Assembly: GCA_902761535.1 (NCBI GenBank)
Contig: CACWKS010000002.1
Span: 270,611-334,610, forward strand
DNA length: 64,000 bases
Direction of reading: 5' to 3'
From: an uncultured Pseudomonadota bacterium
Lineage (GTDB): Bacteria > Pseudomonadota > Alphaproteobacteria > RF32 > CAG-239
The position numbers and the translations under genes were made by a program. Of this stretch, positions 37,923 to 40,151 are shown piece by piece. The notes beneath the pieces were generated by a model that did not search any database, was not told the DNA's origin, and saw only the letters and a list, made by a program, of their open reading frames with translations. Within the stretch, counting starts at the first letter, position 1. Each line of letters begins with the position of its first letter.

Positions 37923-40151
37923 ATGATTGCTAATTTTGACGAATTTAATCATTATATTGACAGTTTGTTTACATCCGGTACTGTTTCGGATTTTGCAAGC
38001 TATCGTCAGGCTTTGGCATTATCCAAAAACAAACGCAAAGCCAAAATTGCTTCAATCTCGCAACAAATCAATGAACTATTGAAACTGATTGAACAAGCTC
38101 GTATTAATATCAAACAAGCCTCCTCTGATGATAAAAAATCTCAAGGTCAAGCTCTCAATGCTTATATCCAAAGCAAACAAGCTTTGATTAAGCAATACGC
38201 AGAGGCTAAAAACATCACTCTTTTCAGTGAACTGATCACAGATGCCAAAATTTATGCCTGCACCAAATCTTTGCTGTTGAAATATCTTCCGAATGAGCTT
38301 GGCAAAATTCCTTATTTATCCATGCCGCAAGATGAGCAAGGTAATTTAATTTTCGTTCCCGATAAAATCAAAGATACCCCGCTTGATCGCAATATTCACC
38401 ATATCATTGATTACGTTACCTCTTATCTTGAGAACTATCCTGAAAAAGTCCGTGGTGCCAAGCATTTTACCGGTCTGCATAAAAAATGCACGGATATGAA
38501 TGAATTAATCGAAGAAATTGATGCTTATTTTGCCAAACTTAATTCTCCTACTGAAAAAGAAACCAATCGCATTAAAAAAAGCCATTCCGGTTTTGAGGTT
38601 GTTATGAATATGCCTGAATATGGTCTGCAAGCCGTGCGTCTTTTGACCAAACCGGCTCTGCAATATGAAGGCTCGGCTATGCACCATTGTGTCGGCTCTT
38701 ATGCCACAAAAGTTGAAAAAGGCGAAACCGCCATTTATTCCATCCGCTTAACAGCTGACGAAGCTCATGAAATGATACCTGTTGCCACGATAGAATATAA
38801 AGAAGGCAAATTAAACCAAATCAAAGGCCCTCATGATAAAGAAATTTCTTTTGCCTATCTGCAAGGAGTGAGAGATTTTATCCTTCGTTTAACCGGCAAA
38901 AAAGATATGGCTGAAATTGCCTCAGACGATACTGTTAAGGATAAGCAAAATATCGGCATAATCAAAGACAACACCGGAGTTTATCGTGACATTTATACTC
39001 TGATAGAAGATGAGAATTATTGCTTTGATAACATCTATATCGAAGCATCATCTTTGCCTTATATTCCAACCAATCATATGACCGTAAAAACTTTAACCGT
39101 TCATGGAAAATTAAAAACCGATGATTTAAAATATTTATCCGCCATCAATGTGCAATCAACCATTCATTTTCATGAATTGGATTTTGAGGGCAAACATCTT
39201 GATTTATCAAATTTCACCAATACGAATATAACACTAAAATTTAGTAGAATACCTAACCTGGAAATGATAACTTTATCTGATAAAGCTGAATCGTTATATT
39301 TATCCGGAGAAGCACCGAAGTTAAAAGATATTATCGGTGCCCCTCACTTGCATCATCTGGATTTGAAAGGAAAATATCTTTTACTCAAATTATCAATTAA
39401 CAATTGGCCAGAATTAACTGATTTAAAAACAACTTGTGATAATTTTACCTCACCTGATGTAGATTTGCAAAATTGCTCTCACTTAAAACACATATCAATT
39501 GTCTCTTCAGAAAAAGGAAACAACTGTCAATCGCTAATCTTGCCGGATAGTGTTGAGAGCTTAAGTCTTAATGGTGATTTTCCTCATTTAAACCAAATCA
39601 TTTCATCTAATTTGGAAGAATTAAATATGGGCGGTTCGTTCGAATTATTAACTTCACTTAATTTTTCGCAAATCTGCCCAAAATTAGAAGACCTTGACAT
39701 GATGGACTGTAAAATGGCTAATTTGCGTGAACTTATTGCCTCTTCCAATATACTCTTTATTAATATGAATCAAAGTGAATTTCCCGCTTTAGAAAAAATG
39801 GATTTTTCCGCCATGCCACTCAAAACTTTTGGCCAAATCGACAGTAAGCTTACGGCAACGATTACCATCTCTGATCAACCCCAAAGTCAAGATCAAAATT
39901 TGTCACGTTTGCGCGGTGTAGTCCTCCAAGAAGCCCAACTTCCCAATTTGAGAGAAATTATATATCCGCAAGCTGTTGAGGTAATAGATTTTTCCCTTAA
40001 TCAGTTTAATCCCCATAACGTTATTAACTTCAATGCTTATCCCAATTTACACACTATCGTAACACCTGATTTTAAAACTATTGATATGAGCAAACCAACT
40101 CAACCTGATACAACCGCCATTTTAACTCGGCGACAAGCCGTCAACTATTGA
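37923..40151 (+). CDS. PcfJ-like domain / leucine-rich-repeat fusion protein (742 aa), candidate secreted effector
   Basis: central ...YEGSAMHHCVGSYATKVEKGETAIYSIRL...IEYKEGKLNQIKGPHDK block resembles PcfJ-like domain; C-terminal 350 aa with irregular L..L.L..N/L LRR-like repeats; about 45% GC. Confidence 0.5.
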   Translation: MIANFDEFNHYIDSLFTSGTVSDFASYRQALALSKNKRKAKIASISQQINELLKLIEQARINIKQASSDDKKSQGQALNAYIQSKQALIKQYAEAKNITLFSELITDAKIYACTKSLLLKYLPNELGKIPYLSMPQDEQGNLIFVPDKIKDTPLDRNIHHIIDYVTSYLENYPEKVRGAKHFTGLHKKCTDMNELIEEIDAYFAKLNSPTEKETNRIKKSHSGFEVVMNMPEYGLQAVRLLTKPALQYEGSAMHHCVGSYATKVEKGETAIYSIRLTADEAHEMIPVATIEYKEGKLNQIKGPHDKEISFAYLQGVRDFILRLTGKKDMAEIASDDTVKDKQNIGIIKDNTGVYRDIYTLIEDENYCFDNIYIEASSLPYIPTNHMTVKTLTVHGKLKTDDLKYLSAINVQSTIHFHELDFEGKHLDLSNFTNTNITLKFSRIPNLEMITLSDKAESLYLSGEAPKLKDIIGAPHLHHLDLKGKYLLLKLSINNWPELTDLKTTCDNFTSPDVDLQNCSHLKHISIVSSEKGNNCQSLILPDSVESLSLNGDFPHLNQIISSNLEELNMGGSFELLTSLNFSQICPKLEDLDMMDCKMANLRELIASSNILFINMNQSEFPALEKMDFSAMPLKTFGQIDSKLTATITISDQPQSQDQNLSRLRGVVLQEAQLPNLREIIYPQAVEVIDFSLNQFNPHNVINFNAYPNLHTIVTPDFKTIDMSKPTQPDTTAILTRRQAVNY

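Follow-up and report, generated by a model that had tools for sequence, protein, structure and literature searches.

A chromosomal PcfJ-leucine-rich repeat gene with an exchangeable repeat module and a conserved downstream gene in uncultured gut Alphaproteobacteria

What might a PcfJ-like protein ending in leucine-rich repeats (LRRs) be doing in ordinary chromosomal DNA? This question is raised by a 64,000-nt chromosomal stretch of an uncultured alphaproteobacterium (GenBank assembly GCA_902761535.1, contig CACWKS010000002.1, positions 270,611 to 334,610), hereafter the window; coordinates are positions within it. The listing of open reading frames (ORFs) places a gene of 742 codons plus stop at 37923..40151 on the plus strand, exactly where a sequence-only reading of this DNA had claimed it, and a rumen metagenome contig (L086) holds an identical copy together with its neighbours. 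That reading had described a PcfJ-like domain fused to an LRR region and proposed a eukaryote-targeted effector. We found that the protein is a bona fide PcfJ member by sequence and predicted fold, but an undescribed architectural variant, being chromosomal and having an LRR C-terminus, a dedicated partner, a basic tail and a recombining recognition module. The explanation that we put forward, tentatively and at somewhat under an even chance, is a conflict-type two-gene module in which a conserved, probably enzymatic PcfJ head would be guided by an exchangeable LRR and assisted by the partner.

PcfJ core and domain layout

Pfam matched PcfJ (PF14284) to aa 193-307 at E = 7.2e-12 with 45.8 bits, well over the gathering score of 25, and all 58 family members matched it as well, which bears out the PcfJ-like central block claimed earlier. 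The motifs named in that claim (EGSAMHHCVGSY, IYSIRL and IKGPHDK) belong to the PcfJ superfamily signature. The window protein shares this hidden Markov model (HMM) match, the predicted fold and the signature E-G-x-x-M-x-H-C-V-G-x-Y ... I-Y-S-x-R ... P-x-x-T-x-E ... Q-x-x-G with PcfJ-like proteins such as PcfJ of Enterococcus faecalis pCF10 and those of phages. It keeps signature residues E249, G250, M253, H255, C256, V257, G258 and Y260, followed by I271, S273, R275, P286, T289, E291, Q299 and G302. Across 109 generic PcfJ cores, conservation reached 100% for E249 and C256, 99% for R275, 98% for Y260, 96% for H255 and T289, 94% for S273 and E291, 88% for Q299 and 83% for G302. Such a near-invariant set of polar residues suggests a catalytic or metal-binding site. 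An HxxD[YFW] motif (H160/D163) lies about 80-95 residues N-terminal of the signature and was present in 46/46 family members, 45/92 generic PcfJ proteins and 2% of shuffles.

We modelled the protein with AlphaFold2 (AF2) from 20 homologs, with a mean predicted local distance difference test score (pLDDT) of 85.7 (87.7 in a second model). The model consists of helices at aa 18-128, a helical sub-domain at 153-220, an alpha/beta core at 224-301, a linker at 310-344 and a solenoid at 346-721, so that the structure prediction recommended by the sequence-only reading yielded a helical N-terminus, a PcfJ core and an LRR-like solenoid. The N-terminal region, delimited from the model and from family conservation (aa 1-128; 37923..38306, +), has three long helices (aa 18-65, 68-96 and 106-128), in line with the helical N-terminus that had been claimed. 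It is strongly conserved in the family, with N4, L15, F16 and K35 among the invariants of close members, and gave weak coiled-coil-type Pfam matches only (V-SNARE, E = 0.005). The helical sub-domain that follows (aa 129-222; 38307..38588, +) carries the H160-x-x-D163-Y motif of the wider PcfJ module. The PcfJ alpha/beta core with its helical linker (aa 223-345; 38589..38957, +) was assigned from Pfam, AF2 models and superfamily conservation, and its modelled secondary structure runs b224-230, b235-240, a243-253, a258-265, b270-276, b286-293, b296-301 and a310-324. An LRR-type beta-solenoid, an exchangeable module of variable length, makes up aa 346-721 (38958..40085, +), as judged from AF2, Foldseek, family HMMs and allele comparison. 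The last residues (aa 722-742; 40086..40148, +) form a low-confidence C-terminal tail (pLDDT <55) delimited by AF2 and charge statistics.

A Foldseek search of the PcfJ core against the predicted structures of BFVD returned 33 phage proteins at E <= 1e-3 (best 4e-11), nearly all annotated as PcfJ-like; one phage match was annotated as LRR. PHROGs matched the core to five phage families whose function is unknown. Our PDB searches by sequence and by fold turned up no solved PcfJ structure; by sequence the full protein matched FlgJ alone (E = 1.6, noise), and scans of the protein against NCBIfam and PADLOC gave no matches. Among the top 50 PDB fold matches of the isolated PcfJ region, about 40 were MYST/HAT1 acetyltransferases (GNAT-related), which like the PcfJ core have a beta-sheet and helix core with a conserved Cys and Glu. 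The likeness is not significant (best E = 0.024, template modelling (TM) scores 0.25-0.32, root-mean-square deviation 7-12 A), the motif order differs and no sequence similarity was detected; we treat it as a lead only.

LRR solenoid

LRR models of Pfam gave nothing significant on the PcfJ-LRR protein itself (best, an FNIP repeat at aa 536-570, E = 0.084), the LxxLxLxxN-type motif had 6 loose matches within aa 346-721, and hydrophobic autocorrelation of the LRR part showed no significant positive lag or period. In the AF2 model, the solenoid has a short strand every 10-12 residues with pLDDT mostly >85. The top 29 Foldseek matches in the PDB were all LRR proteins (E-values 5e-4 to 0.1, with low TM-scores), including the NRG1A LRR (5.4e-4), SHOC2, InlF, TLRs, LRRC8 and Bacteroides BspA-like surface proteins. 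In two sets of aligned family members, LRR_EndoS matched 8/20 and 13/39, LRR_4 6/20 and 3/39, and FNIP 3/39 of the larger set; LRR_5, LRR_8 and LRR_14 also matched, and the best E-values for LRR models were 1.8e-8 and 1.1e-7. The repeats are irregular units of 20-24 aa of the FNIP/EndoS/BspA kind, for example LPDSVESLSLNGDFPHLNQI. The earlier LRR call is right, then, although it rests on modelled fold and family HMMs instead of an LRR HMM match of the protein's own or sequence periodicity. The fusion of a PcfJ-like domain to an LRR region is accordingly upheld by the PcfJ HMM, AF2, Foldseek and the family LRR HMMs.

A repeat type resembling FNIP, BspA and EndoS LRRs, with the Bacteroides surface proteins 4fdw and 4fd0 and the internalin InlF among the fold matches, would suit a cell-surface adhesin of the BspA/internalin type. 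We regard this as very improbable: Pfam and hydropathy showed no signal peptide, lipobox, transmembrane segment, sorting signal, anchor or autotransporter domain in the PcfJ-LRR protein, and its N-terminal 345 aa form a cytoplasmic-looking helical, enzyme-like module.

Relation to the PcfJ superfamily

Searching exhaustively with HMMER for the core (aa 190-345), we obtained 713 representative clusters. About 57 of them are built like the window protein, with a core at roughly aa 190-350 of a protein of 600-1100 aa. PcfJ is thus widespread, in phages, conjugative elements and giant multi-domain proteins. The giants (1000-3300 aa) combine 1-3 PcfJ cores with InPase, Topo IB, CCA-adding/PolyA_pol, HD, 2'-5' RNA ligase and SLT domains, and one giant member has LRV/HEAT repeats. 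The concept of multi-domain 'polyvalent' proteins of phages and conjugative elements reportedly comes from Iyer et al. in 2017. In such proteins PcfJ cores, sometimes 2-3 of them, stand among many enzymatic domains; the window protein has the PcfJ core in common with them but has a single one, with no other enzymatic domain and no mobile element.

Among 77 shorter PcfJ proteins, 7 have C-terminal ankyrin repeats in the same layout, with about 180-200 aa followed by the PcfJ core and then the repeats, and 2 have LRR_4 matches. The PcfJ-ankyrin proteins (P0111, P0121, P0132, P0147, P0158, P0159 and P0165; loci L095 and L096), which are from JGI environmental metagenomes, differ from the window protein in their repeat type, in length (473-596 aa), in their mostly acidic tails and in coming from freshwater and sediment samples. 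Several of these clusters have equal longest-contig sizes (19,193 nt; 24,479 nt) and may share a contig as multi-copy arrays. A metagenome scan with the PcfJ-ankyrin proteins gave 80 loci, mostly of generic PcfJ. PcfJ-like domains have also been described upstream of the variable regions of diversity-generating retroelements (DGRs) (PMC5758913). Taken together, these domain partners show PcfJ joined again and again to a protein-recognition or variable module.

Distribution and chromosomal context

The window is ordinary chromosome, with genes for ATP synthase, PriA, MutL, PGI, a Mur ligase, KdsB and AnmK, and its histidyl-tRNA synthetase (HisRS) is 76-80% identical to those of uncultured Alphaproteobacteria metagenome-assembled genomes (MAGs) from ruminant and other gut samples. 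Every full-length homolog of the PcfJ-LRR protein contains PcfJ (637-1054 aa, identities as low as 32%), and the two that are named come from uncultured Alphaproteobacteria. We found no family relative in IMG/VR viral contigs and rejected a viral origin on that ground. PcfJ-like proteins are typically encoded on plasmids, integrative and conjugative elements or phages, whereas the window gene is chromosomal and its family is not in IMG/VR; the family further departs from them in its long-helix N-terminus, LRR C-terminus, basic tail and partner, and in the loss of D276 and H287 in one subclade. The ten flanks that we examined show several arrangements, all in chromosomal housekeeping DNA, with no integrases, relaxases, type IV secretion system (T4SS) or other secretion genes, or phage genes.

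The sequence-only reading had placed the gene in an islet near tRNA-Glu and had given it a higher GC content than the flanking core genes. Its neighbours orf185, orf183, orf187 and orf126 indeed have no family assignment, and a tRNA-Glu(ctc) gene (42551-42626, -) lies 2.4 kb downstream; we found neither an integrase nor an att-like repeat of the tRNA. The GC claim was mistaken, the gene being at 0.360 (LRR part 0.343) against 0.376 for the window, 0.380 for HisRS and 0.428 for KdsB. A horizontally acquired islet was rejected on this GC content and the missing integrase and att-like repeat. No islet genes were found within 10 kb of HisRS in the related MAG loci L001-L003, and a conserved syntenic slot beside HisRS in these MAGs was rejected on this 10-kb view.

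Wide conservation among free-living relatives in a housekeeping context had been named in advance as what would speak against an effector, and the pair is kept throughout the clade in unremarkable chromosomal surroundings, which comes close to that situation. The same conservation, as a single locus together with the partner, fits a lineage-specific housekeeping scaffold, in which the LRR would bind proteins of its own cell and the PcfJ core would be non-catalytic in the window subclade; the loss of D276 and H287 there and purifying selection on the N-terminus (dN 0.03) point in this direction too. Yet the other signature residues are strictly retained, the family is absent near HisRS in the three related MAGs (in a 10-kb view only), and the LRR allelic replacement and large block indels between near-identical genomes, described below, would be unusual for such a surface. 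A scaffold of this kind is, in our judgement, improbable.

LRR exchange between relatives

We compared the window with the syntenic locus L084. Identity was 91-99% for the flanking proteins and 90-98% for aa 1-350 of the PcfJ-LRR protein, whereas aa 401-700 reached only 26-52%. Nei-Gojobori estimates for aa 1-380 were 0.03 nonsynonymous (dN) and 0.10 synonymous (dS) substitutions per site, as against dN 0.61 and a saturated dS of 2.28 for aa 421-700. Because dS is saturated in the latter region and 0.10 in the former, the LRR block is an old divergent allele introduced by recombination, not a product of recent substitution. Three alleles (742, 905 and 735 aa) occur at this one syntenic locus. 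The N-terminal regions of the window protein and two relatives, P0001 and P0006, are mutually 92-95% identical; the window LRR is 79% identical to that of P0001 and 46% to that of P0006, yet 71-74% to those of more distant species. Across the family, N-terminal and LRR similarities are incongruent. The window allele is also without two repeat blocks (about 190 and 60 aa) that P0001-P0005 and P0007 carry, and we found no internal DNA repeats of note that could explain these indels. Diversification of the DGR type was rejected: there is no reverse transcriptase nearby, and divergence over about 900 nt at saturated dS fits recombination.

Between window 36417-40778 and L084 8395-12832, dS is just 0.05-0.13 for the TIM-barrel and GNAT genes, the PcfJ N-terminus and the partner, and 0.27-0.93 for the outer flanks (MscS, HisRS, KdsB, AnmK and an acyltransferase). 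These values suggest that the window and L084 lineages recently exchanged the PcfJ-LRR locus, with an old LRR allele embedded in it. At locus L090 (7001-13874), a His_Phos_1 phosphatase gene stands between tandem PcfJ-LRR paralogs (931 and 831 aa), with a 259-aa homolog of the partner after them. The order His_Phos_1, PcfJ, partner recurs in L093 and L094.

A recognition module that varies by recombination and size, tandem paralogs in some genomes, a working domain derived from mobile elements and the lack of export signals would all accord with an intracellular sensor-effector against phages or plasmids. Here the LRR would recognise an invader protein and activate or direct the PcfJ head, with the partner as inhibitor or co-effector; bacterial immune systems commonly couple a variable repeat sensor to an effector domain. 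It is nonetheless a doubtful reading, as neither the PcfJ-LRR protein nor the partner has a PADLOC match, NTPase and known effector domains are missing, the surrounding genes do not form defence islands, and PcfJ in phages and plasmids would more naturally serve offence or anti-defence.

Partner gene and two-gene unit

The partner gene, orf185 (40221..40778, +; 185 aa), starts 69 nt after the PcfJ-LRR gene and has no known domain as judged from homolog searches. Its homologs, of 160-286 aa and with identities as low as about 20-25%, come immediately after PcfJ-LRR in 8/10 independent contexts, and in the window/L084/L175, L081, L082/L083, L089/L092, L090, L093 and L094 they are co-directional with it on its 3' side. 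Conversely, every locus with a partner homolog has an adjoining PcfJ-LRR gene. Three partner homologs from an independent profile search are likewise all beside a PcfJ gene (831-945 aa), one of them with a gap of 3 nt. The partner family is small (14 clusters), with invariant residues G80, W123, P126, F131, N142, Y161, S165 and R176. Pfam, NCBIfam, PHROGs and PADLOC gave nothing for the window protein; Lcl_C/DUF1566 matched weakly in 1/11 homologs (E = 0.0055) and not in the window partner, and a search of the partner profile against the PDB was uninformative (TcpK, E = 0.13).

In L084, whose LRR is the replaced one, partner identity to the window is still 92%, and the partner therefore probably does not read the LRR surface. 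A polymorphic toxin/immunity pair was rejected, as the pattern is reversed: relative to L084 the core is 96% and the downstream gene 92% identical, and it is the binding module that varies. In a sequence of 245 aa (P0027), the first ~130 residues of a PcfJ-LRR protein run into the partner's C-terminal domain; a natural deletion, or else misassembly, seems to have removed the PcfJ core, the LRR and the partner N-terminus.

The layout of the two genes is operon-like. A promoter-like site at 37863..37891 (+), a perfect TTGACA followed after 17 nt by a TG-extended TAGATT, matches consensus at 10/12 positions, lies 32 nt 5' of the PcfJ-LRR ATG and is the best-matching site of the region. The strong promoter claimed for the gene is thus present as a consensus match only, and promoter-like sites in the region are no more numerous than in shuffles. 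Between this site and the start codon is an AAGGA Shine-Dalgarno sequence (37908-37912). We found no terminator-like site between 40151 and 40221, and a bidirectional terminator-like hairpin with a 10-bp stem and T-runs on both strands (40784..40807) closes the two-gene unit.

A conserved 52-nt element 5' of the partner (40154..40205, +), found as direct repeat D1 with two copies in the window, is a candidate promoter/operator. Its core, AAATTATTAATCAATTA (40189-40205), holds the near-palindrome TTAAT-CA-ATTAA and is kept 5' of partner genes even in distant loci (L081, L082, L084, L089 and L090). The second copy (41470..41521, +), which is 75% identical, lies 5' of orf187 (41538..42101, +; 187 aa), a possibly co-regulated small gene with a 78% identical ortholog in L084. 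Because they share this upstream element, the small genes may have a promoter/operator of their own. That orf187 is a paralog of the partner is unsupported (BLASTP E = 0.1, hhalign E = 0.14). The GC content of orf185 and orf187 is 0.43 (orf187 0.433), with 0.45-0.47 at third codon positions, clearly above their neighbours, and orf185 has no obvious Shine-Dalgarno sequence.

Export signals and C-terminal tail

A simple hydropathy test found no signal peptide or transmembrane segment in the PcfJ-LRR protein or the partner. The PcfJ-LRR N-terminus, MIANFDEFNHYIDSLF, is not hydrophobic, and the maximum 19-residue Kyte-Doolittle mean is 0.74. There were no secretion-system genes in the scanned portions of the window or in flanks of up to 10 kb. 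The last 25 residues of family members are basic, with a mean net charge of +2.9 and 78% of members at >=+2 (window protein +2), as compared with +0.83 for other window proteins (Mann-Whitney p = 4e-7, a statistic inflated because related sequences are treated as independent) and +0.68 for generic PcfJ proteins. The LRR part of the family is slightly acidic, and the tail sequence is not conserved. Basic, poorly conserved tails resemble the C-terminal signals of VirB/D4 T4SS substrates without being specific to them. The family tail is likewise compatible with such a signal and not specific to it, and could equally bind nucleic acid or membrane.

These features bear on the effector proposed at the outset, for example a T4SS substrate whose LRR would bind eukaryotic proteins of the host or of rumen protists, whose PcfJ head would modify them, and whose partner would be a chaperone or provide self-protection. 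Fusion to LRR or ankyrin repeats is a typical trait of host-interaction effectors, and PcfJ occurs with both repeat types. With LRR effectors and surface proteins (IpaH/SspH, YopM, Legionella LegL, internalins and BspA), the window protein shares the LRR solenoid as presumed binder, and as in IpaH a distinct functional domain accompanies the LRR. The two domains stand in the opposite order to IpaH/SspH, however, with no NEL or other known effector domain in Pfam; unlike LRR effectors and surface proteins, the protein is without a secretion signal or anchor, and its repeats are of the irregular FNIP/EndoS/BspA-like kind. The basic tail without sequence conservation, the origin of PcfJ in T4SS-bearing conjugative elements (by its Pfam name), the exchange of LRR alleles between close relatives, a gut- and rumen-associated host lineage and a small conserved downstream gene that could be a chaperone or immunity-type partner would all be in keeping with translocation. 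We nevertheless consider a translocated effector unlikely. The protein has no signal peptide or transmembrane segment, secretion-system genes are missing from the scanned window portions and the 10 homolog flanks, and mobile-element genes from those same flanks. The contexts are housekeeping ones with the pair conserved across the clade, and the supporting claim of higher GC was wrong. The charge of the tail is compatible with nucleic-acid or membrane binding, its statistic being inflated by kinship. PcfJ cores joined to repeats are found in phage and environmental sequences too, which give no reason to assume a eukaryotic target, and nothing favours a eukaryotic over a bacterial or phage target.

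Proposed module

The two-gene conflict module that we tentatively propose would be chromosomal and specific to a clade of uncultured rumen and gut Alphaproteobacteria. Its constant working head would consist of the helical N-terminus and the enzyme-like PcfJ core of mobile-element ancestry, and the LRR solenoid would serve as an exchangeable recognition module that brings this head to a variable protein target. The partner, which does not co-vary with the LRR, would for that reason most likely have the constant head as its site of action and serve to regulate, inhibit or chaperone it. The combination of a constant head, a recombining binder of variable length and tandem paralogs is what leads us to place the module in inter-genomic conflict or interaction, be it with phages and mobile elements or with another cell.

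Several observations weigh against this proposal. The window subclade has lost D276 (->L) and H287 (->V), which are kept in 79% and 76% of generic cores and in 27/46 and 34/46 family members, and its PcfJ core may therefore be altered or inactive. Matches of the isolated PcfJ region in the PDB were weak (Foldseek, best E = 0.024, TM ~0.3), and the literature gives no activity or structure for any PcfJ protein; our literature search found no functional study and no mention of PF14284, the name being swamped by the C. elegans pCFJ plasmids. The extreme LRR divergence comes mainly from a single outlier allele, P0006; when other members are compared, divergence of the LRR is only slightly faster than that of the N-terminus. 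No partner homolog was detected in the flanks of L088 or L091, and as the partner may have its own promoter, judging from its upstream element, co-transcription with PcfJ-LRR is uncertain. PADLOC-DB 2.0 gave no matches for the PcfJ-LRR protein, the partner, orf183, orf187 or orf126, and the flanks examined held no defence-island or mobile-element neighbours and no secretion genes.

With a single core in a stable chromosomal gene, a dedicated partner and a swapped recognition module, the locus offers an unusually clean handle on PcfJ. The recurring association of the PcfJ core with binding repeats suggests a guided enzyme, for which H160, D163, E249, H255, C256, S273, R275, T289, E291 and Q299 are candidate residues. 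A far-reaching extension, which we think quite unlikely, is that PcfJ is the catalytic head of an unrecognised class of 'guided' protein-modifying or protein-binding enzymes, aimed through swappable LRR, ankyrin, HEAT, LRV or DGR modules, and that the rumen version has been domesticated, with a partner and a T4SS-type tail, for injection into protists, the host or bacteria, the LRR alleles setting its specificity. If exported, the protein would be a first candidate interaction factor of a poorly known uncultured rumen and gut alphaproteobacterial lineage. Should none of these explanations hold, it would be an ordinary lineage-specific protein of unknown function.

Neighbouring genes and other observations

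What lies between HisRS and the TIM-barrel gene differs from locus to locus: this slot holds a family 2 glycosyltransferase gene and orf126 (GC 0.30) in the window (34501-36292), an 814-aa autotransporter in L084 (5474-7918) and a 137-aa ORF in L175 (6306-6719). The slot after the partner varies as well, being filled by orf183 in the window and by a pyrophosphatase-like ORF of 115-117 aa in L084 and L175, and where the GNAT gene would be, L175 has a 58-aa ORF. In L089 (11931-13468) and L092 (8042-9573), a Zeta_toxin-domain gene with an adjacent NT5C gene follows the pair at a distance of about 2 kb, and N6_N4 methyltransferase genes lie at the edges of L081 and L092. The largest ORF of the window (22194-26828, -; 1544 aa) has no Pfam match at E<=1e-5. 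Scans of the intergenic regions for known RNA elements returned tRNA only. A perfect 18-nt inverted repeat with a 5-nt loop (42513-42553) abuts the 3' end of tRNA-Glu and is probably its terminator. Finally, the best matches of the window HisRS (33113-34453) outside its own clade are to Clostridia/Bacillota (51-56%) and not to other Proteobacteria, which hints at an old horizontal replacement of HisRS in the host lineage.

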